Of a DNA stretch of 24,000 nt, positions 471 through 15,319 are shown piece after piece. Source of the DNA: Idiomarinaceae bacterium HL-53 (lineage in GTDB: Bacteria; Pseudomonadota; Gammaproteobacteria; Enterobacterales; Alteromonadaceae); assembly GCA_001458075.1 (NCBI GenBank), contig LN899469.1:942659-966658 (forward strand), given 5' to 3'. The translations under genes and the position numbers were made by a program. Position 1 is the stretch's first letter, and each line of letters starts with the position of its first letter. The notes under the pieces are model-generated. The model was not told where the DNA came from and did no database searches. It saw nothing but the letters and a program-made list of their open reading frames with translations.

Positions 471-1990
471 GTCATGTACTTACCTTTGAACCAGGGCAAC
501 TCACGCTTGCAGAGCTCCGCAAAGTAAGTCGTGAGCCTGTTGAGCTCTCTATTCCAGAGAACGCGTGGGCCGAAGTGGCAACTGCCGCGAAGACCGTGGC
601 AGATGTGCTTGCGCAGGGCCGCGTTGTTTACGGCATCAACACCGGCTTTGGTTTGCTCGCAAATACGCGTATTAAGCAAGATCAACTTGCAGATTTACAG
701 CGCCGTATTGTGCTTTCTCATGCCGCGGGTGTGGGTGAACTCATGAGCGATTCAGTGGTTCGCCTCATGTTGGTGTTAAAGATAAATTCACTGGCGCGGG
801 GTTACTCGGGTGTGCGTCCGGAGGTGATTGAATTTTTACTCACCTTGCTTAAGAGCGAAGCATATCCGTGCGTGCCGGAAAAGGGCTCGGTGGGAGCATG
901 TGGTGACTTAGCACCACTCGCTCATTTAGTTTTACCTATTCTTGGCGAAGGTGAAATTCGCTTACGTGGGCAAGTGATTCCATCGAGAGATGCACTTGCT
1001 GAATTGGGTTTAGAGCCTATGCCGCTGGCCCCTAAAGAAGGGCTTGCCTTGCTGAATGGTACGCAAGCCTCCACCGCATTGGCGCTGCATGGACTCTTTG
1101 CCATTGAAGATGTATTCAGAGCTGGTTTGTTAGCGGGGGGGATGGCGGTGGAAGCTGCGCTCGGCTCTCGTACACCCTTCGATGGCCGCATTCATGCGGT
1201 GCGTGGGCAGTTAGGGCAAATGGACGTTGCAACCGAGTTGCGCCGCATATTAGATGGTGGCAGTGAAGTAGGCGATTCCCATAAAAACTGTGAAAAAGTT
1301 CAAGACCCTTACTCACTAAGGTGCCAGCCGCAAGTCATGGGTGCTGTTTGGGACCAGATTCGGTATGCGGCGATGATTTTGGAAAGAGAAGCGAATGGTG
1401 TGACGGATAATCCGCTCGTGTTCAGTGCCGACAACGATATTCTCTCAGGCGGAAACTTCCATGCTGAGCCAGTGGCGCTCGTGGCAGATGCATTAGCCGT
1501 CGCGTGTAGTGAAATTGGTGCATTGTCGGAGCGCCGCATTGCGTTGCTCGTAGATAAGAACTTGAGTAACTTGCCTCCTTTTTTAGTTGAAAATGGCGGT
1601 ATAAACTCTGGCTTTATGCTTGCTCAAGTAACAGCTGCGGCGCTTGCTTCGGAAAATAAAACACTTGCGCATCCAGCGTCCGTTGATAGTTTGCCGACTT
1701 CTGCAAACCAAGAAGATCATGTTTCGATGGCAACTTTTGCGGCAAGACGACTCGAGGATATCGCCGAGAATACGGCTGCAATTGTGGCAGTTGAACTGCT
1801 TGGAACATCACAAGGTTTAGACTTCCGAAGACCGTTGAAAAGTTCGGAGACGATAGAGGCAACTTACGCGAAAATACGTGAAAAAGTAGGTTTTTATGAT
1901 GAAGACCGCTACTTTTCGCCGGACATCAAAGCAATCACTCAATTAATTCGTGGTGGTGAGTTAAGCGAACTTTGCCATATTGAGCTCTAG
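467..1990 (+). CDS. hutH: Histidine ammonia-lyase (507 aa), with an Ala-Cys-Gly triad instead of the canonical Ala-Ser-Gly at the MIO-forming position
   Basis: Full-length similarity to HAL family: [13 protein letters not shown][C][45 protein letters not shown]. It is translationally coupled to hutU. Confidence 0.95.
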
Positions 1991-2892
1991 CGAGGTGCTT
2001 TTACCACATATTTGCCGGTAAACATGGCGGCGAAATCATCGCCGTCATAAACCGCAACATTAAGGGTAAGGTGGGTGTTTTTACCTTGTTTTAACCCCCC
2101 GAAATTACCTTCCATGTCACTCAAGCTAACGACGGCGCGAGGTTCTTGGTCGATAGGCGCTTTGTATTCAATGTGTCCGTCTGCCAACACGATGCCACCC
2201 GTGAGTCCTTCTTCTTGCAGGTGCAGTTGAATCATGCCCCAGCCCGCAAGTGTAGCGAGCGTGTAAATGCTGCCTGCAAACATGGTTTGATGCACATTAA
2301 TATTGCGCGCTAGCGGTGCACGAACTTCAAAAGTTCTGCCAGTGTATTGATAGATTTGTATACCCATTGCTTCGGTGATCGGTATTTCGCGATGCCAAAT
2401 CGTTTGGAGCGCTTCGCACCATGCGGGCCGGTAAACAATATAGTCGGGTTTGTCTAAGGCTTTGACGAGTTGGTGCTCAGCTTGAGGGTTTTTAACAGTG
2501 TCAGCTTCCTCTTTGAGTTCGTAACCACAGCGAATGTAAAAGCCTAACGTATTCTCGCGAGAGTTGATCACGATACGCTCAGCGCCTTGCTCCTTTGCAG
2601 CTAACTCTAGTGCATAAATTAAGCTCACTCCATGGCCCTCTCCTTGATATTTAGGATCCACTGCCATAAAGCGAATCTGTGCTTCCTCTGGGCTATTAAA
2701 GTGAATTCTACCAACGCCGATCGCTTCCCCTTTCTCATTCACCAACATACGGTGGTCGCCAACTTGGTCGTAGGCGTCCTTTTCAGAACCTGGTGGGCGT
2801 TTGAAGGGTTTACGCAATACTCGCCAGCGTAAATCATAGTAACGCGTAAAGGTTTCTTCGCTGCTGGGAATAATTACCGACACTTTTGTCAT
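1987..2892 (-). CDS. yiiD: Bifunctional GNAT acetyltransferase / hotdog-fold thioesterase, YiiD(FabY)-like (301 aa)
   Basis: The N-terminus [26 protein letters not shown]...[14 protein letters not shown] closely parallels E. coli YiiD. The C-terminal half (IQIYQYTG...[19 protein letters not shown]...[11 protein letters not shown]) matches the YiiD C-terminal thioesterase domain. Confidence 0.85.
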
Positions 2893-5901: not shown

Positions 5902-6825
5902 CTAGTCACCGCGAATTCGCTTGATATACTCACCAGGTGATACGCCAAGCTCTTGTTTAAAAAATCGAATGAAGGAGGTTGCCGACGCATAACCTACTTG
6001 TTCAGCAATTAACTCGATCGGTAATTTTTGTTGGTGTAATAAGAATCGTGCCCGCTGTAAGCGCAGAGCATTGAGTAGAGATTTAGGGCTCATGCCGGTT
6101 TTGTTGTGAACACGATCGGCAAATGCACTACGCGATAAAAACGCCTTGGCCGCCATTGATTCAACTTTCCAATTGCCTGCGGGGTTATCAATAATCGCCA
6201 ACACCACCTGCTTTAATTGAGGGTCTTTAAGAGCAGCGAGTATGCCTTGTTGAGCATTTTCATTGGCAATCACATTCCGTAAAACCTGTAAAACTACAAC
6301 GTCGCTCATGCGACTGATGGCGGTTTCAAATCCGGGCCGCTTCGCTTCTGACTCTTGTTCAATGAGTTCAACCACAGCACGCAATGAACCACCTTGCTCT
6401 GCCGCTGGAATAACACACCAATCTGGCAATGTTTGGAACACAGTTTCGGTGACGGTGTCATTCACTTCAATGTCGTAGCACACCAAACCTTGATCTCCCT
6501 TCTCTGGTGTGCAGTATGGCTTGAATTTTCCTGTCTCTAGGGCGCTATCGCTAGCCTCTGAACTCAGCCAATGGGTCACAGAGCGAGCAAAGAAAATGGC
6601 GTCGCCAGCTTGTAATTTTACCCGCTGATGCTCACCCGGCACCGTAAGCCAAGCTTGCCCATAGCTGAGGATATGTAGCGCAGGTTTTCCACTACTTTCG
6701 GCTTTTAATGCCCAGCCTTTGCAGAGCCCCGATTGGAAATGCAATGACGCACCAAAGGCGAGTTGGGCAATTAAGCCTTCTAATTCATTCGGTGCTTCTG
6801 TTGATTGCTTCGGCGTGTTAGTCAT
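5902..6825 (-). CDS. AraC-family transcriptional regulator with an N-terminal cupin-like domain; start trimmed to ATG 6825
   Basis: The C-terminal dual HTH is SRSAFADRVHNKTGMSPKSLLNALRLQRARFLLHQQKLPIELIAEQVGYASATSFIRFFKQELGVSPGEY. An AGGAGC RBS lies 5 nt upstream of ATG 6825, whereas the ORF-track start at 6891 has no RBS. The gene is divergent from the 6905-10597 cluster. Confidence 0.85.
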   Translation of the reverse strand: MTNTPKQSTEAPNELEGLIAQLAFGASLHFQSGLCKGWALKAESSGKPALHILSYGQAWLTVPGEHQRVKLQAGDAIFFARSVTHWLSSEASDSALETGKFKPYCTPEKGDQGLVCYDIEVNDTVTETVFQTLPDWCVIPAAEQGGSLRAVVELIEQESEAKRPGFETAISRMSDVVVLQVLRNVIANENAQQGILAALKDPQLKQVVLAIIDNPAGNWKVESMAAKAFLSRSAFADRVHNKTGMSPKSLLNALRLQRARFLLHQQKLPIELIAEQVGYASATSFIRFFKQELGVSPGEYIKRIRGD

Positions 6826-6904
6826 TGTGCTCCTACGCGCAATTGTCGAACCTATGAATACAGAAATAAGGTTAGTGTACAACAGTCTCATTGTTGGGGT
6901 TTAT

Positions 6905-7360
6905 ATGAATGATTTCATAGTTTTAGCAAGGCCGCATCCTTTTGTTGTTGGAGAAATGGCTACTTTTTTAGCTGAAATGAACGTAGGAGTGAGGAAACTC
7001 AATCACTTAGATGAGTTGAGTGAGGTTTTAGTTAATGCGAAAGCTGCTGTTATTTCGACCGCCGTAACTTCGCCCATTGGTGAAGATGCACCTACAGTTT
7101 ATGCAAAAATTCGAGAGCTGAATGCAAATATCCCAATAGTTTTTGCTGGGCTTCTTCCGCTTGAGAGAACGTATAAGATGATTGAACACATGATGAAGAA
7201 CGAACCTACTCCACATGGTTTAGTGGGCATACATGAGCGAGTAGGTAACCCTAAACTAAATAGCTCCGGTACCGCGCTCTATTTTCATAAGGAAGATCTG
7301 TTACAACTAGAGTATAGAAAAATGGCTTCTAAGTTATTGAAGCAGCATTGCGGACTTTAA
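6905..7360 (+). CDS. Hypothetical protein (151 aa), no recognisable family; alternating beta/alpha pattern
   Basis: The ORF is in frame with track ORF 6719-7360. I trimmed it to ATG 6905 because the upstream part overlaps the AraC gene on the opposite strand. It is the first gene of the co-directional cluster, and I recognised no motifs. Confidence 0.45.
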   Translation: MNDFIVLARPHPFVVGEMATFLAEMNVGVRKLNHLDELSEVLVNAKAAVISTAVTSPIGEDAPTVYAKIRELNANIPIVFAGLLPLERTYKMIEHMMKNEPTPHGLVGIHERVGNPKLNSSGTALYFHKEDLLQLEYRKMASKLLKQHCGL

Positions 7361-7380
7361 CATGTGGAATCGTCTTCAAA

Positions 7381-7587
7381 ATGTCATATTTAATCGTTAA
7401 AACAGGAGTCGGAGTTAGTTTAGTGGTTGGTACGGTACTGAACTTGATTAATCAGTGGGCTGCGATATGGGGCACAGACACTCTGGTTGTGTGGCAACTG
7501 ATATTAAATTATTTGGTACCCTTCACGGTGTCCGTGTACAGTGGTTGGCAACAAGAACACCGAATGAAAACCACTAAGGTGTCGTAG
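7381..7587 (+). CDS. Small two-TM membrane protein, NrtS-like (putative nitrate/nitrite transporter family), 68 aa
   Basis: VVGTVLNLINQ and LNYLVPFTVSVYSG resemble, from memory, the small NrtS family. I chose ATG 7381 over the GTG-type start at 7348. The family assignment is tentative. Confidence 0.4.
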   Translation: MSYLIVKTGVGVSLVVGTVLNLINQWAAIWGTDTLVVWQLILNYLVPFTVSVYSGWQQEHRMKTTKVS

Positions 7588-7608
7588 TTTAAGTAACAAA
7601 GGTATTTC

Positions 7609-8142
7609 ATGGCGAGTGCACAAAGAGAAGTTAAAGAGGCAAGTTGCCCATTAGTCGCCGAGAATCTAAATCAGCTCAGCGGTTTGTTATCCATCCTGAA
7701 CAAATTGACGGCACAGGATTACACTCGTAATGACTTCTATGCGGGTAGCTCGGCAATTGCGAGCCATGTTCGCCATGTTCTCAATCACTATGAATTATGG
7801 CTACGAGCGCAGACCTCAATGCTGCTGAATTATGAGAAAAGAGAGCGAGATATACCCGCTGAAAAGTGTCTAGATGCGGCAAAATCTTGGCTTCAAAACC
7901 TTTTAGAGCAGCTCCAAGAACGGGAGTTCGATTTGCACGCAGAGCTAAAAGTGAGCGAGTGTGGCGGTGCGCTTTCGGTCGTGTCTACGGTCGGCAGAGA
8001 AATGGCCTTCTTGTATAGCCATACTGCGCATCATTTGGCGCTGATTAAACAGCAAGCCAATGAACTAGGTTATGAGCTTTCTGCAAACTTAGGTGTTCAC
8101 CCCTCGACATTACGTGCACAAGGCAAGGCATGTGCACAATAA
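7609..8142 (+). CDS. DinB-like (four-helix-bundle, His-triad) family protein, 177 aa
   Basis: His-rich helices SHVRHVLNHYELWL and FLYSHTAHHLALIKQQANELGYEL...GVHPSTL fit the DinB/YfiT-like pattern. The 3' end overlaps the next gene by 13 nt. Confidence 0.5.
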   Translation: MASAQREVKEASCPLVAENLNQLSGLLSILNKLTAQDYTRNDFYAGSSAIASHVRHVLNHYELWLRAQTSMLLNYEKRERDIPAEKCLDAAKSWLQNLLEQLQEREFDLHAELKVSECGGALSVVSTVGREMAFLYSHTAHHLALIKQQANELGYELSANLGVHPSTLRAQGKACAQ

Positions 8143-9716
8143 CGTGGAGAATTGCTCCTGACCTCCAGCACAACAGTCAGAAATTAACCATTGTTGCTAA
8201 CCGAGATGAGAGTAAGGAGCGAGCTCAAGCGCTCCCGCCGCAATCGTTTCAGAGCCCCAGTAATACGTTTGTTATGCCCGTGGATCCACAGGGAGGCGGA
8301 AGCTGGATAGCGACGAATGAACATGCACTGACGATCGCGTTATTAAATTATTATGAAGCTGATGCTAATCATAGCGAAGAGCCCAAACGTAGCCGTGGGC
8401 TGCTTGTCAAAGACTTGGCCGCTTGCAAAACGCTGTTGCAAGCCGAAAATTATTTACACGCCGCGCAGGTAACGGAGTATGCACCTTTTCACTTGCTCGT
8501 TTTTGCTGGGGTGCAGCACCCTATTTGGTGGAGTTGGAATGGGAGCCAGTTACAACAACGATTGCTAACAACGGGAGTATTAAGTACTTCGGCGTGGGGA
8601 TCTCGCTGGGTTCCAGAGTTAAGAGCTCAGTACCTGCAACGACATTTACACACCATGCGAGAAGACTCAGAGCACTTGCAACTTATGCGGCAAAGTAAGC
8701 CGTACAGCAATAGCATTGCCGTTGCAATGCAGCGCACAGATGCCATGACGGTTAGTACCACAGTCATAAAGGTGACCAGCGCAGACACGCAACTCACTTA
8801 CTATGAGGGGCATCCCAGCCAGCAGTCACATGGCAACGCAATGTTCTTAGTCAGACACAAGTCGGCACTCCATACGCCGGTAGCACACGATCAAAGTACT
8901 TGGGTGACACGCATTCAATTTAAAACTTTGTTTCAGGAAAAGGCTCCGCAACTTGCCCAAAGCCTGCCGAGTATTGCCTTTCCTCTTCTACGTTGGGTAT
9001 TGAGAGAGCGAGCGCTCAACTCGCTTTTGAGTCGTTTTGACTATGTGGCTCCAGAACAATTTTGCGACACAGCACTGCGCGAAATTGGGGTGAACGTGAA
9101 CGTCGAGGCGGAACGTTGGCCAGAACAAAGTGAGCGGCCCGTATTTTTGAGTAATCACCCGTCTGGTGGCCTAGACGGCATTGTGCTGATTGCCATGCTT
9201 AAAAAGCGATATCCTGATTTGAAGGTAGTTGCGAACGATGTACTTCAACAAATAGAGCATATGAAAGATTGGGTGATTCCGGTAAATGTGTTCGGCAATG
9301 CCAAGCGCTCGTTAAGTAACCTGCAAAAGGCATTCGATGGTGTGGAGCCGATTCTTATGTTTCCTGCGGGAAAAACTGCCAGACGCAATGCTTTGGGCGA
9401 ATTGGATGATGGCGATTGGTCGGGGGTGCCTGTGAAGTTAGCCGCGCGCCACGAACGAACGGTCGTGCCCCTTTTTCTGCAGGCCTATAATTCGAAAACA
9501 TTTGATTTTATTGCGAAATGGCGTCAACGTGCGGGAATAAAAATGAATATTGAAATGTTACTGTTAGTACGCGAGTTAATGAAACCCGCTTGCCGACAGT
9601 TTCGGGTCCATCAGTATTCGCCGTTACAACCTAAAGCATTAGTGTCGCTTTTAGCGCAGCAGAGCCCCGGCATGGCGGTTAAAGAAATGAGTTATGCCTT
9701 GCGCAAAGGAGTGTGA
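8130..9716 (+). CDS. Fusion protein: N-terminal NRDE (TANGO2-like) domain plus C-terminal GlsA/OlsA-type lyso-aminolipid O-acyltransferase (PlsC superfamily), 528 aa
   Basis: N-terminal evidence: the protein begins Met-Cys (MCTITW) and carries ANRDE at residues 23-27 (NRDE codons at nt 8199-8210), GGGSWIA, SRGLLVKD and the hallmark NRDE-family layout over ~240 aa. C-terminal evidence: LSNHPSGGLDG (His343, nt 9156-9158), MFPAGKTARRN, VVPLFLQAYNS and NIEMLLLVRELMK match the acyltransferase family partnered with N-acyl amino acid synthases. It is a single uninterrupted ORF. Confidence 0.75.
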   Translation: MCTITWRIAPDLQHNSQKLTIVANRDESKERAQALPPQSFQSPSNTFVMPVDPQGGGSWIATNEHALTIALLNYYEADANHSEEPKRSRGLLVKDLAACKTLLQAENYLHAAQVTEYAPFHLLVFAGVQHPIWWSWNGSQLQQRLLTTGVLSTSAWGSRWVPELRAQYLQRHLHTMREDSEHLQLMRQSKPYSNSIAVAMQRTDAMTVSTTVIKVTSADTQLTYYEGHPSQQSHGNAMFLVRHKSALHTPVAHDQSTWVTRIQFKTLFQEKAPQLAQSLPSIAFPLLRWVLRERALNSLLSRFDYVAPEQFCDTALREIGVNVNVEAERWPEQSERPVFLSNHPSGGLDGIVLIAMLKKRYPDLKVVANDVLQQIEHMKDWVIPVNVFGNAKRSLSNLQKAFDGVEPILMFPAGKTARRNALGELDDGDWSGVPVKLAARHERTVVPLFLQAYNSKTFDFIAKWRQRAGIKMNIEMLLLVRELMKPACRQFRVHQYSPLQPKALVSLLAQQSPGMAVKEMSYALRKGV

Positions 9717-9718
9717 AC

Positions 9719-10597
9719 ATGAAGCCACTTGCCGAATCTATTTCAAAAGCAGAGCTCGCTTCAGAAATTGCCCGTCTCACCCCCATGAAGCATTTTCGTG
9801 GCTTGGATATTTACCAGGTGCACGGAGACGACGCTCCACGCTTAATGTTAGAAATTGGGCGTATTCGTGAGCTCGTATTTCGTGGAGCAGGCGCCGGGCG
9901 TGGAGAAGCACGTGACTTAGATCATTTGGATACCAGTCAACTTGGTTATAAGCAACTGATTGTTTGGGACCCAGTCACTGAAGAGCTTGTGGCCATGTAT
10001 CGCTTTCAAAATGGCGAACATGCGCTTACCGGCGGCGATGAAGTATTACGCACGTCTTCATTGTTTACCTACACCGATCGTTTTCGAAAAGATTGGCTGC
10101 CACACGCCATTGAGCTTGGGCGCTCGGTTGTAAATCCTTTTGCAAAACGAAAGACTCTGGGGTTCTTTGCCGTTTGGCAAGGTTTGGGGGCGCTCATTCA
10201 AGCCTACCCTCAACTGAGCTGCTTCTTTGGTAATGTGACTCTTTACAAAAATTTCCCAAAAGAAGTGCTCGATACTCTCGTGGCCACTTGTGAGAATTGG
10301 TACGCGCCCCCCGAACCACTTATGCAAGCCAAATTAGCGTTGAAATACAATAGCCCTGCGAAACCGCTGCCGCGACCGGAAGACGATTCCCCGCTCACCC
10401 GTATGCAAGCATTAAAAGAAGCATTGGCAGCACATGAAGCTCGCATACCACCTATATTACAAAGTTATATGGGGCTCAGTAACGACATTTATTTGGGTGA
10501 AACAGCGGCAGATCAAGATTTCGGTGATGCGTACGAAATTGCGATTGTTGTACCTATCAAAAACATTGCACCCGATGTGTTGAAGAAGTTTCTATAA
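9719..10597 (+). CDS. GNAT-fold N-acyltransferase of the OlsB/GlsB (N-acyl amino acid / lyso-aminolipid synthase, 'hemolysin-like') family, 292 aa
   Basis: IRELVFRGAGAGRGEARDLDHLD...KQLIVWD matches the family core motif. An AAGGAG RBS at 9706-9711 sits 7 nt before ATG 9719 (an alternative GTG at 9713 overlaps the upstream stop). The gene is translationally coupled to the acyltransferase fusion. Confidence 0.75.
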   Translation: MKPLAESISKAELASEIARLTPMKHFRGLDIYQVHGDDAPRLMLEIGRIRELVFRGAGAGRGEARDLDHLDTSQLGYKQLIVWDPVTEELVAMYRFQNGEHALTGGDEVLRTSSLFTYTDRFRKDWLPHAIELGRSVVNPFAKRKTLGFFAVWQGLGALIQAYPQLSCFFGNVTLYKNFPKEVLDTLVATCENWYAPPEPLMQAKLALKYNSPAKPLPRPEDDSPLTRMQALKEALAAHEARIPPILQSYMGLSNDIYLGETAADQDFGDAYEIAIVVPIKNIAPDVLKKFL

Positions 10598-10666
10598 ATT
10601 ATGCTGGTTGTGCGATGAGCTTGGGGCATCTAAGATACGCTTAGGTAAGTCATACATAGAGATGCC

Positions 10667-11569
10667 ATGGACGCAACAACGATCGGTGCAAAAATAACAA
10701 GCAAGCTGAAACAGGTTTGGGCAGTGAGCCAAGATTTTGTTCAGTTCTTTTCTCAGCGCTTTGCACAAGAAAAAATTAATGTAACCGCAGGCCACCTCAC
10801 CTATGTGAGCCTGCTTTCTCTTGTACCTTTGCTCGCAGTTATTTTCTCGATGTTTGCTGCATTCCCCATGTTTGAGTCGCTGCGCCAAAGTATTCAAGAG
10901 GCTATTTTAGCGAACTTGGTGCCAACCAGTGGGCAAGCGATCGAAGGTTATTTAAATCGTTTTGTAGAGAATGCAAACCAAATGACAGCCGTGGGCGCAC
11001 TATTTCTATTTGTGGTGGCGCTGTTAATGATCTCTGCTATCGACAAGGCGTTGAATACGATATGGCGGGTGCAGCAACGCCGTCGCATGATTATTTCACT
11101 GGCTGTTTATTGGATGGTGATCACGTTAGGTCCCGTGTTGGTGGGCGTAAGTATTGCTGTAAGCGGTTATTTGTTCTCGTTAACTGCACTTGCAGACGAC
11201 TATGTGTCGGGCGTTCGCTCGGGACTGCTTGGGATCGTGCCGATACTTTCAATGTTCGTTGCATTTCTCCTTCTCTATGTGACCGTTCCGAATAAAGTTG
11301 TGCGAGTTCGTCACGCATGGTGGGGCGCAGCGCTCGCGGCTGTTCTGTTTGAGTTAGCCAAAAGTGGGTTTGAGGCTTACATAACCTACTTTCCCTCTTA
11401 TCAGCTTTTATATGGCGCGGTTGCAGCAATCCCAATCTTAATTGTTTGGATCTACCTGTCGTGGAGCATCATATTATTGGGTGCCGTGCTCTCTGCTACC
11501 ATCGAAGATTATGTGGATCCCGAGCGTTACGACCGTGTTCCGGAAGAAGAAGTTGAGGCGGTTGAATGA
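10667..11569 (+). CDS. yihY: YihY/BrkB-family inner-membrane protein (formerly mis-annotated as RNase BN), 300 aa
   Basis: AGHLTYVSLLSLVPLLAVIFSMFAAFPMF, NQMTAVGA, ALNTIWR, YWMVITLGP and FPSYQLLYGAVAAIPILIVWIY are close to E. coli YihY. It is followed by dtd, as in E. coli. Confidence 0.9.
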   Translation: MDATTIGAKITSKLKQVWAVSQDFVQFFSQRFAQEKINVTAGHLTYVSLLSLVPLLAVIFSMFAAFPMFESLRQSIQEAILANLVPTSGQAIEGYLNRFVENANQMTAVGALFLFVVALLMISAIDKALNTIWRVQQRRRMIISLAVYWMVITLGPVLVGVSIAVSGYLFSLTALADDYVSGVRSGLLGIVPILSMFVAFLLLYVTVPNKVVRVRHAWWGAALAAVLFELAKSGFEAYITYFPSYQLLYGAVAAIPILIVWIYLSWSIILLGAVLSATIEDYVDPERYDRVPEEEVEAVE

Positions 11570-12347: not shown

Positions 12348-13073
12348 ATGTCTACCATCGCTATTTTCGGCGCCGGGGGCGGGATTGGCAAAGCCCTCAT
12401 CCAAACGCTCGCGAGAACGAAACCAAACACTAATATACGAGCGGTGAGTTCTCAGGCGCAGCCAAACGAGTTCGAATCCAATCCGCACCTAAGCTGGCAG
12501 CAAACGCCCCACGAGATTCCCGCGCTCGAGGCCTTATGTGAAGCATGGCATGAAGATGGGGTTGTGCTCGATGGTGTGGTATCGACCATTGGTTGGCTAC
12601 ACCGAGATGCGTGGATGCCAGAACGCAGAATTGAGCAATTGAATGAAGCGCAGTTGAATGCCTATTTTCACGACAACGTGATTGTACCCAGCATGCTGTT
12701 AAAAGCACTCAAGCCGCTGTTTCCCAAAAAGTCCCCGTCATTCTTTGCGCAACTTAGTGCGAAGGTCGGTAGTATTGGCGATAACGAATTAGGCGGTTGG
12801 TACGGATACCGTGCTTCGAAAGCGGCATTGAACATGATGTTGAAAACCGCAGCCATTGAGTTTAAGCGTACGCACAAGCAACTGGTGATTAGTAGCATTC
12901 ACCCGGGTACGACCGACACCAAACTATCCGAACCCTTTCAAGAGCGTTTACCGGCCGATAAACTTTTTTCTGCAGAACAAACGGCAGAACGTATGTGGGA
13001 TGTCATCGCAAAATTGAAGCCTGAAGACTCAGGGGGATTCTGGTTTTGGGACGGGACTCGATTGCCCTGGTAA
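12348..13073 (+). CDS. Short-chain dehydrogenase/reductase (SDR), CsgA/C-factor-like subgroup, 241 aa
   Basis: The cofactor motif is IFGAGGGIGKAL and the catalytic motif is YRASKAALN, with HPGTTDT downstream. It starts 3 nt after the DUF2061 gene. Confidence 0.85.
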   Translation: MSTIAIFGAGGGIGKALIQTLARTKPNTNIRAVSSQAQPNEFESNPHLSWQQTPHEIPALEALCEAWHEDGVVLDGVVSTIGWLHRDAWMPERRIEQLNEAQLNAYFHDNVIVPSMLLKALKPLFPKKSPSFFAQLSAKVGSIGDNELGGWYGYRASKAALNMMLKTAAIEFKRTHKQLVISSIHPGTTDTKLSEPFQERLPADKLFSAEQTAERMWDVIAKLKPEDSGGFWFWDGTRLPW

Positions 13074-13144
13074 ACGTGTTTCTCGCTTGCACAGCACCTA
13101 AATATTGGGCATTCTGGATTGTAATCACTAGAAGGAAAGTTATT

Positions 13145-13399
13145 GTGGATTACATTATTAGTTTAATTTTGCCTCCGTTGGGAGTATGGCGCAGTGGTTT
13201 CAAGCCACAACTCATCGTAAGCCTTGGTATTTGGATTCTAGCACTCATTTTCTTTTACGTTGCGGCTAACGATGGACCGCCGGGAACTTATGCAGCTGGA
13301 CCTGTGATTTATATGTTTGCAGTGATTCATTCCTTTGTTCTAACCCACCGTAAATTGCAGGCTGAACGAGGTTCTATTCACCCGCATCAAGACCAGTAA
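13145..13399 (+). CDS. Small membrane protein (84 aa), with an N-terminal helix weakly resembling the YqaE/Pmp3 proteolipid motif; GTG start
   Basis: LILPPLGVW followed by hydrophobic helices. I trimmed the ORF to GTG 13145, which follows a GAAGGAAAG RBS-like purine run, because the track start at 13046 overlaps the SDR gene. The family call is weak. Confidence 0.35.
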   Translation: MDYIISLILPPLGVWRSGFKPQLIVSLGIWILALIFFYVAANDGPPGTYAAGPVIYMFAVIHSFVLTHRKLQAERGSIHPHQDQ

Positions 13400-13468: not shown

Positions 13469-13990
13469 GTGCTTATGAAAGAACTCATTCGCTGTGGCTT
13501 GGTTTTCACATTACCATTTTCTATTCTAGTTTTGAGTGCTTGCTCCGATTCCAGCGCAGATGAGAGCGAGCAGCAATCCGCCCCAACTCCGAGAGTGTTA
13601 GTGGTGACAGCTGAGGCAGCTAACCTCAGTTTAGAGCGCAGCTTTACAGCGCGCACAGAGGGCTCTATGGAAGCTGAGGTAAAGGCGCGTGCGAGTGGCC
13701 AATTGGTGTCGCGTGAATTTACCGAAGGTCAATTAGTTGAAGCGAATTCGGTGATGTTCCGTATTGAGAAGGCGCCTTACGAAGTAACATTGCAATAGGC
13801 ACAGGCGGCATTAAGTCAAGCGGAAGCCGAGTTAAGCGCCGCCGAGCGAGATTGGGCTCGGGTTGCAAATTTATATGATGACGGTGCGATTTCAGGTCGG
13901 GAAAGAGATCAGGCAAAGTCTGAATTAGAAATGGCTCAGGCCATGCGTGAAAGTGCGCAAGCGGCTCTCGACGATGCTGAATTGCAGCAA
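13469..13990 (+). pseudogene. RND efflux periplasmic adaptor (MFP) subunit, N-terminal ~170 codons only, interrupted by an in-frame TAG at 13796-13798
   Basis: There is a lipoprotein signal with lipobox (ILVLSAC), then a barrel-sandwich start (EAEVKARASGQLVSREFTEGQLVEANSVMFRIE). The coiled-coil hairpin (AQAALSQAEAELSAAERDW...ISGRERDQAKSELEMAQ...AQAALDDAELQQ) continues in the same frame across the TAG. The lipoyl return, beta-barrel and membrane-proximal domains are absent. Confidence 0.75.
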
Positions 13991-15319
13991 CGAAGCGGCG
14001 TTGCGAATACGCTCACATTTATTGGCTACGACTTGCTCAATGGAGGCCGAAAGCCGAACGTAGGCGCAAGTTTCGTAACTTTAGATGACTGGGACGCGCG
14101 TGATCTCGGCGAGAACAGCAGCCAAGACTTCGCAGAAGAAATTAACGCATTGGGTGAACAATTCCCTGAGGCTGAGATTACAGCCGCGAACCCTCCGCCG
14201 ATTTCGGGTATCTCAACCACCGGCGGTATTGAAGGCTACGTTGCTATACTCACCGAAGGTGATACCGAAGCGCTACTTCTGTATATGAATGAGCTTACCT
14301 CACTCGCGAATGCGCGTCCTGAATTGCAAAATGTTCGCACCACGCTCAATACCAATATTCCACGCTACACTGCGTATGTAGATCGTGAGCGAGCCAAAAC
14401 AATTGGCGTAAATATTGAGGATATATTTGCCGCGATGGGTGCAACATTTGGTCGTAAATATATCAACGACTTTACTTACTTGGGCAGAATGTGGCGCGTT
14501 TATATGAGTGCCGAGTCTGCCTATCGAGAGAGCCCGAGAAACCTTTCAGAAGTGTTCGTGCGCGCAAGTAATGGCGAAATGCTTCCGCTTAACTCTGTCG
14601 TGCGAGTGGAACGAACAACAGGCCCTGATTCTGTCCAACGCTACAACAGTCGACCTGCAGCTCGTCTAATTGGCGAGCCTGCACCGGGGTACTCTACAGG
14701 TGAGGCCATGGCGGCGCTAGAAGAAATTGAAGCAGAGCTACGCGAAGGGAATGAGCAATATCAATTGTTTTGGACTGGCGCATCGCAACAAGAGCGAGAC
14801 GGGAAGTCATCAGCAGGGTTAGCATTCGGTTTTGCGATTCTAATGGTTTTCTTATTGCTCGCGGCGCAATATGAACGCTGGACGCTTCCGCTAGCAGTTT
14901 TAACTGCGATTCCGTTTGCGATTTTCGGGGCTATTTTTGCAACTTTTGTCTTGGGATTACAAAACAACATTTATTTCCAGATTGGTTTGTTAGTACTTAT
15001 TGGCTTGGCCGCGAAGAACGCAATTCTCATTGTTGAGTTTGCTACTTTGCACCGTAAGCGCGGCATTTCGGTGGTGGGATCGGCAATACTCGCATGTAAA
15101 CAACGATTTAGACCGATTCTCATGACCTCACTAGCGTTTATTTTGGGCGCATTGCCGCTAGTATTTGCCAGTGGCGCCGGTGCGGCTGCTCGGCAGGCTG
15201 TGGGGGTTACTGTAGTGGGTGGAATGCTTGTGGCTACCTTCGTTTCAATCTTCTTTGTGCCGGTGTTCTATCAATGGATTGAAAAGCAGGTGGTGGTGAA
15301 ACGTAGAAAAAGAACTTGA
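13991..15319 (+). pseudogene. RND (AcrB/HAE1-type) efflux permease, C-terminal ~440 codons only, fused in frame to the adaptor fragment
   Basis: TFIGYDLLNGG..NVGASFVTLDDWDARD aligns to AcrB at roughly residue 610 onward. Further matches are RYNSRPAARLIGEPAPGYSTGEAM, YERWTLPLAVL, GLAAKNAILIVEFA, RFRPILMTSLAFILGALPLV and FFVPVFY. The entire N-terminal half (TM1-7 and the PN1/PN2 subdomains) is missing. ORF-track piece 13931-15319 starts at an ATG that still lies inside adaptor-derived sequence. Confidence 0.8.

Follow-up and report, generated by a model that had tools for sequence, protein, structure and literature searches.

A TANGO2/NRDE-type domain fused to a GlsA-type O-acyltransferase in a conserved bacterial aminolipid operon

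The function of TANGO2, whose loss causes a severe human metabolic disease, is disputed, with heme trafficking, acyl-CoA binding and Ntn hydrolysis all under discussion. In the stretch of 24,000 nucleotides analysed here (the window), a single gene joins a domain of this NRDE/TANGO2 family to an acyltransferase of the kind that acts on lyso-aminolipids.

The fusion gene and its two domains

The fusion gene is one uninterrupted ORF joining two modules (Table 1), as had been claimed in a reading made from the sequence alone, and all the motifs listed in that sequence-only reading are found where they had been placed: M1-C2, A23-N24-R25-D26-E27 (codons 8196-8210), GGSW (56-59) and SRG (88-90) in the N-domain, and NHPSGGLDG (342-350), FPAGKTAR (411-418) and NIEMLLL (473-479) in the C-domain. 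Between the domains lies a variable linker, in which residues 245-257 have a pLDDT below 50 in the AF2 whole-protein model and identity among orthologues is 0-36%, as opposed to 21-56% in the two domains. The model reaches a pTM of 0.86 in spite of this disordered linker, which suggests that the arrangement of the predicted domains may be fixed.

The window derives from a metagenome contig, and an error of assembly or sequencing could in principle have joined two genes into one, an explanation that has practically no chance of being right, since 31 other genomes, each assembled independently, and 2 further metagenome contigs carry the same unbroken ORF, with cultured isolates (Aliidiomarina, Alkalimonas, Arsukibacterium, Alishewanella, Salinispirillum) among its carriers. 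Comparison thus answers whether a frameshift or stop separates the two halves, the same ATG-TGC ORF being intact in isolates and MAGs alike, and a frameshift artefact is rejected. The JGI gene call for this locus, Ga0076929_100133, begins at Met49 (480 aa), because of which Cys2 and the NRDE motif are missing from it, and the public annotation of the source contig needs correction at the start of the fusion gene.

Table 1. Features of the fusion locus, in window coordinates
Feature	Position	Strand	Basis
AraC-family regulator (Cupin_6 + HTH_18), divergent	5902..6891	-	Pfam: Cupin_6 E=1e-32, HTH_18 E=4e-21
Conserved hypothetical, ~150 aa, start uncertain	6908..7360	+	Conserved between AraC and DinB-like genes
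Small NrtS-like membrane protein, 68 aa	7381..7587	+	NCBIfam NF038050, 26.2 bits (cut-off 25)
DinB-like helical protein, 177 aa	7609..8142	+	PF05163, E=1.7e-5, 25.3 bits (cut-off 23; marginal)
NRDE::GlsA fusion gene	8130..9716	+	ATG start, 528 aa, no internal stop, TGA 9714-9716
NRDE/TANGO2-type Cys-Ntn domain, residues ~1-240	8130..8849	+	PF05742, Foldseek, conservation
Cys2, putative nucleophile (codon)	8133-8135	+	
NRDE motif (codons)	8199-8210	+	
Inter-domain linker, residues ~241-265, variable	8850..8924	+	Low pLDDT, low identity
GlsA/OlsF-type lyso-aminolipid O-acyltransferase domain, residues ~266-528, plus stop	8925..9716	+	PF19576, PF01553
His343 (codon, inside NHPSGGLDG)	9156-9158	+	
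Asp349 (codon, inside NHPSGGLDG)	9174-9176	+	
GlsB/OlsB-type amino-acid N-acyltransferase, 292 aa	9719..10597	+	PF13444, NCBIfam GlsB

The N-terminal domain belongs to the TANGO2/NRDE family, as proposed from its motifs (PF05742, E=3.7e-16, 60.5 bits against a cut-off of 22.6, with residues 1-203 covering model positions 1-199). A single-sequence search against PDB sequences reached TANGO2 at E=0.06 only and was insufficient, whereas the family profile of the N-domain matched the human TANGO2 chains at E=4e-8. When the AF2 model of the domain (pLDDT 85) was compared by Foldseek, the best matches were TANGO2 structures 9bwa and 8sv7 (E ~1e-9, target TM 0.58-0.64), followed by CV2077, penicillin V acylase (PVA), bile-salt hydrolase (BSH) and isopenicillin-N acyltransferase (IAT), so that the predicted fold is of the Cys-Ntn-hydrolase type and bears out the likeness of the Cys2 start to Ntn amidases that had been remarked upon.

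Conservation is high at several residues expected of such a fold. Among 32 fused orthologues (the window and 31 other species), whose N-domains are only 21-55% identical, C2 and R25 are invariant (32/32 each), and D26 and N73 are kept in 31 and 29; in 16 stand-alone relatives Cys2, Arg25 and Arg165 are again invariant, and Asp26 and Asn73 nearly so. Met-Cys-Thr stands at the extreme N-terminus of every fused protein and of 15 of the 16 stand-alone ones, the exception (P0052) having a 17-residue extension ahead of its Cys. With Cys as residue 2, methionine aminopeptidase would be expected to remove Met1. C2, N24-R25-D26 and N73 align with C2, N25-R26-D27 and N75 of human TANGO2, its proposed catalytic set, and the motif N24-E27 as a whole with N25-E28. 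Where counterparts of TANGO2 Asn157, an oxyanion-hole residue, and Lys166 were sought, S154 (30/32) and R165 (32/32) are present as candidates, in a region in which the MAFFT addition of the human sequence is unreliable; the human sequence used agreed with 25 residue numbers in PMC13044924 and with 128 residues of the profile alignment.

These residues bear on the idea that the NRDE domain is a non-catalytic module, binding acyl-CoA or lipid or acting in regulation, which tethers or senses the substrate of the acyltransferase. Human TANGO2 has been shown to bind, and only to bind, and Balneolales paralogues with degenerate NRDE motifs persist, as this idea would allow; against it stand the near-universal N-terminal Met-Cys-Thr and a Cys-Ntn Arg/Asp/Asn set that is invariant or nearly so, a pattern which, as far as sequence conservation can tell, looks like the signature of a nucleophile and not of a pocket alone. 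A non-catalytic module is accordingly judged improbable.

The C-terminal domain is a GlsA/OlsF-type O-acyltransferase, in agreement with the sequence-only reading (Acyltransf_2, PF19576, E=4.2e-42, 144 bits against 27, residues 268-504; PF01553, E=6e-7). H343, P344, G346, G347, D349, G350, R418, N473 and E475 are invariant in 32/32 orthologues, and a comparison of the domain with PDB sequences found no relative with a solved structure. The NCBIfam GlsA model (NF053697) gives 188.3 bits (E=1.5e-55) on the fusion, below its equivalog cut-off of 260, and the downstream gene, which is OlsB/GlsB-like as had been supposed (PF13444, E=3e-10), gives 197 bits with the GlsB model (NF053696), below its cut-off of 300. 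Membership of either equivalog is therefore rejected, and because of these scores the C-domain is filed as GlsA-type and not as GlsA. OlsF membership is rejected as well, since the N-acyltransferase lies on a separate gene and the OlsF model (NF052615) gives 116 bits (N-half) on the fusion and 150 bits (C-half) on the downstream gene, against a cut-off of 620. The two genes are tightly coupled, the GlsB-like ATG lying 2 nt past the fusion TGA with GGAG 8 nt upstream, and a GlsB-like gene stands directly 3' of the fusion in every fused locus of sufficient extent.

The operon, its spread and its unfused relatives

The locus is a conserved aminolipid operon, in which a DinB-like gene is followed by NRDE::GlsA and then GlsB. 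The DinB-like gene had been overlooked; it is translationally coupled to the fusion, its TAA stop (8140-8142) overlapping the ATG-TGC start by 13 nt, and no other gene accompanies this NRDE subfamily as constantly. In 22 of 31 fused loci, and in most of the unfused clusters, the orthologous gene stops where the NRDE reading frame begins, and a DinB-like gene adjoins stand-alone relatives in 46/66 metagenome loci. Residues H53, H56, H138, H141, H142, R55, R78, R80 and R130 are invariant, of which H53, H138 and H142 are compatible with a His triad, the family match itself being marginal. No match was found between the DinB-like profile and PDB sequences, and a single-sequence AF2 model (pLDDT 48) was unusable for fold comparison. 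None of the three operon proteins matched the anti-phage defence models of PADLOC.

Further upstream, the divergent AraC-family protein, a candidate regulator of the operon, has an orthologue (45-55% identity) that is placed and oriented alike in 18 fused loci of gammaproteobacteria. The hypothetical gene beside it, for which no significant Pfam or NCBIfam match was found, is present in loci L003-L005, L008, L009, L013 and L019, and the NrtS-like gene is kept immediately 5' of the DinB-like gene in several fused loci. Scans of positions 6700-10900 gave no promoter-like sites and terminator-like sites at chance level, and the composition profile indicates no island.

The fused ORF with its Met-Cys-Thr start occurs in species from three phyla, mostly from alkaline or soda habitats. 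It is rare (12 clusters among 5.8 billion; ~31/185,579 species genomes) and is annotated as 'NRDE family protein' and nothing more specific, and a literature search found no paper linking NRDE/TANGO2 with any aminolipid term, which agrees with the suggestion that the architecture had not been characterised. A search on the polar lipids of Aliidiomarina, Alkalimonas, Arsukibacterium and Alishewanella found nothing useful. The fused N-domains form one clan, apart from 41 stand-alone sequences, which together with the intact ORF in so many species speaks for selection on the fusion. The fused form is the rare one and derives from a large family of NRDE proteins of ~245 aa that stand alone.

The fusion had been put forward as genomic-context evidence that NRDE domains act on acyl lipids, and this argument, of the Rosetta-stone type, has grown stronger, as the unfused relatives are linked to the same genes on a much larger scale. 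Stand-alone NRDE genes lie beside OlsF or GlsA/GlsB in Vibrio cholerae, V. vulnificus, V. nigripulchritudo, Marinomonas and metagenome lineages; among metagenome loci whose flanks each span 3 kb or more, OlsF, GlsA or GlsB adjoins in 17/25, or in 11 of 16 lineages after dereplication, and several different gene orders are seen. Relatives with no aminolipid neighbour also exist (L085, L086, L088, L093 and L094). A cyanophycin-synthetase-like ATP-grasp ligase and DedA genes are often found in the unfused clusters, and no ATP-grasp gene was found near the fused lineages. NRDE is dispensable for basic aminolipid synthesis, because 49 GlsA-GlsB loci have no NRDE inside the flanks examined and V. 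cholerae VCA0646 alone suffices to yield ornithine lipid in E. coli (PMC12971839). Together, the fusion and the unfused linkage point to a probable lipid-acyl role for TANGO2-type proteins.

This linkage also bears on a role outside lipids, such as heme trafficking (suggested for Shewanella HtpA and HRG-9), with the NRDE domain fused merely through gene adjacency. HtpA (SO0126) of Shewanella oneidensis, a bacterial TANGO2 homologue of the same Pfam family (DUF833/TANGO2), has been reported as a heme-trafficking protein (PMC10470608), and genes for cytochrome P460 and for cytochrome c assembly lie near two unfused relatives. The context of htpA differs, however, in that a metal transporter adjoins it and no aminolipid or DinB genes are reported there; the heme role is disputed, heme binding having been nonspecific in a crystal study; and adjacency alone can explain neither the aminolipid linkage in most independent lineages and in several gene orders, nor a fusion kept across three phyla. 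We regard a role of this kind as very improbable.

A proposed role for the NRDE domain

The reading that we prefer, tentatively and at a little less than an even chance, is that the N-domain is catalytically active, forms an acyl-enzyme of the Cys-Ntn kind and assists the fused acyltransferase, the likeliest mode being the loading of acyl groups from thioesters. In the pathway so conceived, the GlsB-like enzyme would attach a 3-hydroxy fatty acid to the amino group of an amino acid, yielding a lyso-aminolipid, the glycine type being the nearest model, and the C-domain would esterify a second fatty acid onto its 3-hydroxyl. Methionine aminopeptidase would expose Cys2, because of which the NRDE domain could be placed only at the N-terminus of a fusion. 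We infer that Cys2 would then accept a fatty acyl group from an acyl-CoA or acyl-ACP thioester to form an S-acyl-enzyme, and that this would deliver the acyl group to the lyso-lipid acyltransferase or gate its supply, with hydrolysis of the acyl-enzyme as a possible editing outlet. The DinB-like protein would be an obligate partner acting with the NRDE domain.

Thioester loading is favoured by analogy with two systems. Purified human TANGO2 binds C16/C18 acyl-CoA via its NRDE pocket, and its loss leads to accumulation of lysophospholipids, although the protein is no lysophospholipid acyltransferase itself (PMC11867700); in the window, an NRDE domain is fused to a lyso-lipid acyltransferase. 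IAT, a close structural neighbour, is a Cys-Ntn enzyme with an acyl-CoA donor. On the other side, the bonds cleaved by most Cys-Ntn relatives characterised so far (PVA, BSH, acid ceramidase, NAAA) are amides and not thioesters, gene order alone could account for the fusion partner being the O-acyltransferase and not GlsB, and the roles of the DinB-like, ATP-grasp and DedA proteins are unaccounted for in the model; the dispensability of NRDE for synthesis as such and the relatives that lack aminolipid neighbours also count against it.

Nearly as likely, and so possible rather than probable, is that the NRDE domain acts as an amidase or transamidase on one of the fatty-acyl amides that the pathway makes, be it the N-acyl amino acid, the lyso-aminolipid or the final product, with editing of wrong amino acids, lipid turnover, or exchange of head groups via acyl-Cys2, as in bile-salt hydrolases, as its modes. 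The structural neighbours after TANGO2 are PVA, IAT and BSH, the last of which cleaves and re-forms N-acyl-glycine and N-acyl-taurine amides; the pathway runs via an N-acyl amino acid; the ATP-grasp ligase of the unfused clusters suggests amide-bond chemistry at the head group; NRDE is accessory and not essential for synthesis; and aminolipids are currently without known remodelling, editing or degradation enzymes. A hydrolase fused to the enzyme that consumes the same intermediate looks futile, however, unless it were strictly editing, and amide chemistry would leave unexplained both the acyl-CoA binding of TANGO2 and the lyso-lipid accumulation in TANGO2-deficient cells; the ATP-grasp gene, too, is absent from the neighbourhood of the fused genes.

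The fusion and its many unfused relatives tie the bacterial NRDE branch, physically and genomically, to lyso-lipid acyl transfer. A wider proposition, which we hold to be doubtful, is that NRDE/TANGO2 proteins are true Cys-Ntn acyl enzymes ancestrally servicing lyso-lipid acyltransferases, by loading, editing or exchange, and that in bacteria they form a two-gene enzyme together with the DinB-like protein, which would possibly be a separately encoded equivalent of the helical alpha-subunit found in acid ceramidase and NAAA. If this were true, bacterial aminolipid clusters would give the NRDE/TANGO2 family its first defined substrate and partner, and the lyso-lipid accumulation upon TANGO2 loss in human cells would be explained. 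With a simple aminolipid product that LC-MS can measure, the TANGO2 question becomes addressable in tractable bacteria, and work on VCA0646 has already supplied V. cholerae strains, conditions and lipid assays. The clusters also draw attention to a so far unrecognised set of accessory genes beside aminolipid synthases, a module of DinB-like and NRDE genes, often with DedA and an ATP-grasp ligase.

Comparison with known systems

In V. cholerae, VCA0649-VCA0646 correspond to DinB-like, NRDE, YHS and OlsF genes, as read from primer mapping, with VCA0647 and VCA0648 placed by position. Mapping of published primers puts VCA0646 on the OlsF gene, and a VCA0649 primer falls on codons 12-17 of the DinB-like gene with 5 mismatches, yet exactly at its published position; for 2kbU_646_F and the full-length chimeric deletion primers no mapping was obtained within the mismatch limits. 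VCA0646 has been described as the OlsF ornithine lipid synthase, induced at low salinity, in a paper that gives no description of VCA0647-0649 (PMC12186959). The cluster resembles the window in having a DinB-like gene, NRDE and then an aminolipid synthase, in unfused form, and its NRDE protein is 32% identical to the window N-domain. It differs in that the genes are separate, that a YHS-family gene is added and DedA and ATP-grasp genes lie upstream, and that the synthase is a bifunctional OlsF, as opposed to the GlsA-type and GlsB-type pair of the window. The GlsA and GlsB of the Bacteroides glycine-lipid pathway are the top-scoring named models for the C-domain and the downstream gene and share the order of O-acyltransferase, then N-acyltransferase; the window proteins score below the equivalog cut-offs, and GlsA there stands alone with no NRDE domain.

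Human TANGO2, which has been proposed as a Cys-Ntn hydrolase, shares with the N-domain its family by HMM, its fold (8sv7, 9bwa), the Met-Cys start, the NRDE motif and an LxN motif. Identity is only ~16%, and the N-domain differs in that it is joined to an acyltransferase and has a DinB-like gene as its partner. In the class II (Ntn) glutamine amidotransferases GlmS, PurF and AsnB, a Cys-Ntn domain, which has to lie at the N-terminus, is fused upstream of the synthase that it supplies. The likeness to these enzymes is one of architectural logic only, as their Ntn family is unrelated and ammonia, not an acyl group, is transferred.

The Cys-Ntn hydrolases IAT, PVA, BSH, acid ceramidase and NAAA belong to a different family and are 10-14% identical to the N-domain; they act on lipophilic N-acyl substrates, and acyl transfer is a further activity of IAT and BSH. 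Autoproteolysis uncovers the Cys of IAT, acid ceramidase and NAAA, in which a helical alpha-subunit remains bound, whereas the Cys of the fusion protein comes straight after the initiator Met, and a separate gene immediately upstream encodes the helical DinB-like protein, which by analogy might, speculatively, be the counterpart of that alpha-subunit.

The fused gene and its operon

The 528-codon ORF begins with ATG and is uninterrupted, and every motif listed for it by the sequence-only reading was found on translation at its stated residue. Its first half matches NRDE (PF05742) over residues 1-203, from model position 1, with 60.5 bits (cut-off 22.6; E=3.7e-16), and its second half matches Acyltransf_2 (PF19576) at E=4.2e-42 over residues 268-504 and PF01553 at E=6e-7, in keeping with the NRDE domain and C-terminal acyltransferase first read there; membership tests place the protein in both PF05742 and PF19576. 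Among NCBI models, the C-terminal domain is ranked first by GlsA (lyso-glycine lipid O-acyltransferase) and second by the N-terminal half of OlsF, the bifunctional ornithine lipid synthase. The GlsA score is 188 bits, below the equivalog cut-off of 260, and GlsA equivalog identity is ruled out.

The following gene, already taken for a translationally coupled OlsB/GlsB-like synthase, proved to be of this kind, its scores being 197 bits for GlsB and 150 bits for the C-terminal half of OlsF. At 197 bits against a cut-off of 300, GlsB equivalog identity is ruled out, and neither this gene nor the fusion protein qualifies as OlsF. The head-group amino acid of the putative aminolipid cannot be named from model scores. 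Absent from the sequence-only reading was the DinB-like gene, which shares its last 13 nt, TAA included, with the ATG-TGC start region of the fusion gene.

Features of the operon and its upstream flank (window coordinates)
Feature	Position	Strand	Models and remarks
AraC-type regulator, divergent	5902-6891		upstream of operon
Conserved hypothetical, 150 aa			upstream of DinB-like gene
Small NrtS-like membrane protein	7381-7587		upstream of DinB-like gene
DinB-like gene, 177 aa	7609-8142	+	PF05163, 25.3 bits vs 23
NRDE::GlsA-type fusion gene	8130-9716	+	PF05742, PF19576, PF01553
GlsB-like gene	ATG 9719, 2 nt past fusion stop, GGAG upstream	+	PF13444

The public gene call on the source contig, the JGI metagenome contig Ga0076929_100133, starts at Met49 and gives 480 aa; the stretch left out (window 8130-8274; L175, 1857-2000) holds Cys2 and the NRDE motif. 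Against this call, Met-Cys-Thr opens 32 of 32 orthologues, and the stop of the preceding gene overlaps the true start.

Downstream of the operon lie a BrkB/YihY-family gene, dtd and an SDR gene, all of them housekeeping genes. Farther along, the ORF at 13931-15319 (+) matches the AcrB/RND pump model (1021 positions) over 575-1020 only; it lacks the N-terminal half and is possibly a truncated pump gene; two small ORFs 5' of it (13046-13399 and 13469-13798) gave no family match. Another two-domain acyl-handling protein, a GNAT acetyltransferase fused to a YiiD_C thioesterase-like domain, is encoded at 1987-2892 (-), 5 kb upstream of the operon and with no relation to it as far as seen.

Distribution and conservation of the fused form

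Both the intactness of the gene and the taxonomic spread of its architecture had been raised from the sequence; the fusion is genuine, ancient and rare. Among 5.8 billion protein clusters, both domains were found in one protein in 12 clusters only (35-55% identity), which publicly bear just the name "NRDE family protein", and when one genome from each of 185,579 species was scanned, 31 loci with the full-length fused protein came up. In 31/31 of these it is a single ORF with an ATG-TGC (Met-Cys-Thr) start. The fused loci fall in the Gammaproteobacteria (Aliidiomarina, Alkalimonas, Arsukibacterium, Alishewanella, Rheinheimera, Idiomarina, Bacterioplanes, Saccharospirillum, Salinispirillum and Natronospirillum) and elsewhere in Balneolales and Cyclonatronaceae MAGs, several from CSSed-labelled sediment samples, and in one Polyangiaceae MAG. 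The closest match is that of Aliidiomarina sp. B3213 (53-56%), where gene order is also shared as far as the BrkB-family gene, dtd and SDR; a related, Idiomarinaceae-like organism is thus the probable source of the window.

The genera involved are mostly of alkaline or soda habitats, record titles carrying no pH data, and across the fused loci the form is almost confined to lineages regarded as alkaline, soda-lake or saline, examples being Alkalimonas, Arsukibacterium, Aliidiomarina, Natronospirillum, Cyclonatronaceae and Balneolales (CSSed sediment). There are hints here of a link between the fused form and life at high pH.

Identity among fused orthologues is 21-55% in the N-domain, 31-56% in the C-domain and 0-36% in the linker, and particular residues are kept throughout: C2, R25 and R165 in 32/32, D26 in 31/32, S154 in 30/32 and N73 in 29/32 in the N-domain, and H343 and D349 in 32/32 in the C-domain. 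In a quick neighbour-joining tree, built without bootstrap, fused N-domains and 41 stand-alone relatives lie on opposite sides of one branch, a pattern consistent with one fusion that later spread horizontally.

Two fused paralogues occur together in some Balneolales (L020 and L027, from one MAG; also L025 and L028). In one of the two the NRDE motif is degenerate (NRDD, NRDA or NREI) and N73 and SRG are gone, with C2, R25 and R165 kept. In a Natronospirillum MAG (L031, 8001-9257) the fused ORF has just 418 aa, matching the N-domain over residues 1-178 and the C-domain from about its position 55, which suggests an internal deletion spanning the domain junction.

Stand-alone relatives and their aminolipid genes

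The stand-alone subfamily is large: when 1.84 billion representatives were searched with a profile, 7,770 clusters passed E<=1e-3 and 2,316 passed E<=1e-30, nearly all of 230-300 aa, with one fused cluster among the best 150. For unbiased sampling, metagenome contigs were scanned with a peptide pattern from the N-domain only, and the resulting 80 loci were annotated with profiles built from loci already found. The DinB-like gene lies immediately upstream of NRDE in 46/66 loci having enough upstream sequence, and an OlsF, GlsA or GlsB gene lies within 3 kb in 17 of the 25 loci whose flanks each extend for 3 kb or more. After dereplication at 70%, a synthase is present in 11/16 lineages, the DinB-like gene in 13/16 and an ATP-grasp gene in 8/16, so that the proposal that the fusion is context evidence for an acyl or lipid role of NRDE is supported and extended to unfused genes.

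This linkage is not one inherited block, since gene orders vary among lineages: the synthase may be co-directional or convergent, upstream or downstream. In Vibrio nigripulchritudo, V. cholerae, V. vulnificus and Marinomonas the order is DedA, ATP-grasp-like, DinB-like, NRDE, YHS-family and OlsF, and in two metagenome lineages it is DinB-like, NRDE, then convergently YHS, (GlsB,) ATP-grasp and GlsA. Some stand-alone lineages have the module and no synthase, and two have neither; NRDE was absent from the flanks of GlsA-GlsB loci, 49 in number, in Bacteroidota, Spirochaetota and Neomarinimicrobiota.

A DedA/VTT membrane protein accompanies the unfused clusters L081 (3700-8971), L089 (3677-8935), L091, L092, L110, L125 and L137, and those of Vibrio and Marinomonas have an additional secreted YHS '(seleno)protein'-family gene. 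The ATP-grasp ligase of unfused clusters (360-420 aa) is weakly similar to cyanophycin synthetase and is a candidate enzyme for modifying aminolipid head groups at the expense of ATP; no gene is known as yet for the ATP-dependent step that transfers taurine to ornithine lipid.

In V. cholerae, VCA0646 was shown in 2025 to work as an ornithine lipid synthase and to be induced when salinity is low (PMC12186959), and both OlsF paralogues of this species are functional in E. coli (PMC12971839). The published VCA0646 primers map exactly to the OlsF gene of the V. cholerae locus L089. VCA0649 is identified from sequence as the DinB-like gene, since its reporter primer lands there at the published offset of 51 nt (codons 12-17, with 5 mismatches in a divergent strain); by position, VCA0648 is assigned to NRDE and VCA0647 to the YHS family. 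In the non-reference V. cholerae loci L089 and L090 (7129-8935), the OlsF gene is split between calls of 48 and 534 aa, and translation from the published GTG start (7129) meets a stop, this start looking out of frame; translation there likely starts at the methionine of MMQTQPF (about 7201), and a frameshift or sequencing error would lie near 7330.

Fold, possible mechanism and known systems

A profile of the N-domain with 15 stand-alone relatives matches the sequence of the human TANGO2 crystal structures at E=4e-8, pairing C2, NRDE and the LxN motif (N73 with N75). The AlphaFold2 prediction for the full-length protein, made from an alignment of 12 sequences, reached a mean pLDDT of 85 and a pTM of 0.86, with disorder only at 245-257. 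The suspected likeness to Ntn hydrolases was recovered with Foldseek against the PDB, which ranks human TANGO2 first (9bwa, 8sv7; E ~1e-9), then the bacterial NRDE protein CV2077 (3gvz), then Cys-Ntn enzymes in the order penicillin V acylases, bile-salt hydrolases and acyl-CoA:isopenicillin-N acyltransferase. As modelled, the N-domain is a TANGO2-type Cys-Ntn fold with an intact-looking catalytic site and obligatory N-terminal placement. Methionine aminopeptidase is known to remove Met before Cys, which would give the free alpha-amine required for Ntn catalysis. The same kinship has been proposed for TANGO2 in a 2026 crystal study, which found heme binding nonspecific and put forward C2, N25, R26, D27, N75, N157 and K166 as the catalytic set (PMC13044924); counterparts of C2, NRDE and N75 were placed in the N-domain, and those of N157 and K166 could not be fixed.

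At sequence level, NRDE is coupled covalently or operonically to lyso-aminolipid acyltransferases, with a constant DinB-like partner, and from this setting we infer substrate and mechanism. Tentatively, the domain may serve the fused acyltransferase by thioester loading: Cys2 would take an acyl group from acyl-CoA or acyl-ACP, and the domain would pass or gate it to the acyltransferase. This reading is favoured by the binding of acyl-CoA in the NRDE pocket of TANGO2 and by the accumulation of lysophospholipids on loss of TANGO2, itself no LPLAT (PMC11867700), the bacterial fusion partner being an LPLAT-superfamily lyso-lipid acyltransferase. Slightly less probably, NRDE would be an amidase or transamidase acting on an N-acyl amide, whether to edit it, to turn it over or to exchange its head group; cleavage of lipophilic N-acyl amides, N-acyl-glycine conjugates included, is the activity of most characterised relatives, NRDE is accessory to aminolipid synthesis, and many unfused clusters hold an ATP-grasp ligase. 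Thioester loading is placed slightly ahead because it alone connects with known TANGO2 biochemistry and phenotype. Isopenicillin-N acyltransferase, a Cys-Ntn enzyme using acyl-CoA, is a precedent for it, and the resemblance of the fusion architecture to class II amidotransferases also counts in its favour.

Neither reading accounts for the DinB-like protein. Its family has invariant H53, H56, H138, H141, H142, R55, R78, R80 and R130 (alignment A3), and no solved-structure relative was detectable by sequence; His53, His138 and His142 with the four arginines suggest a metal site with an anionic ligand. Speculatively, its place just ahead of a protein with an N-terminal Cys may be compared with the helical alpha-subunits found in acid ceramidase, NAAA and IAT.

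A search of one literature library found no paper combining NRDE or TANGO2 with aminolipid terms, and a 2026 aminolipid review names no amidase, Ntn, DinB or ATP-grasp component (PMC12971839). By that search, the general NRDE-aminolipid linkage has not previously been described, and it would be unexpected to specialists in TANGO2 or bacterial lipids; through it, the disputed function of the TANGO2 disease-gene family becomes directly testable in bacteria. The GlsA/GlsB-type aminolipid operon is a known kind of system, to which the present one adds a Cys-Ntn domain with a DinB-like partner, an architecture that, by the literature search, is as uncharacterised as first supposed.
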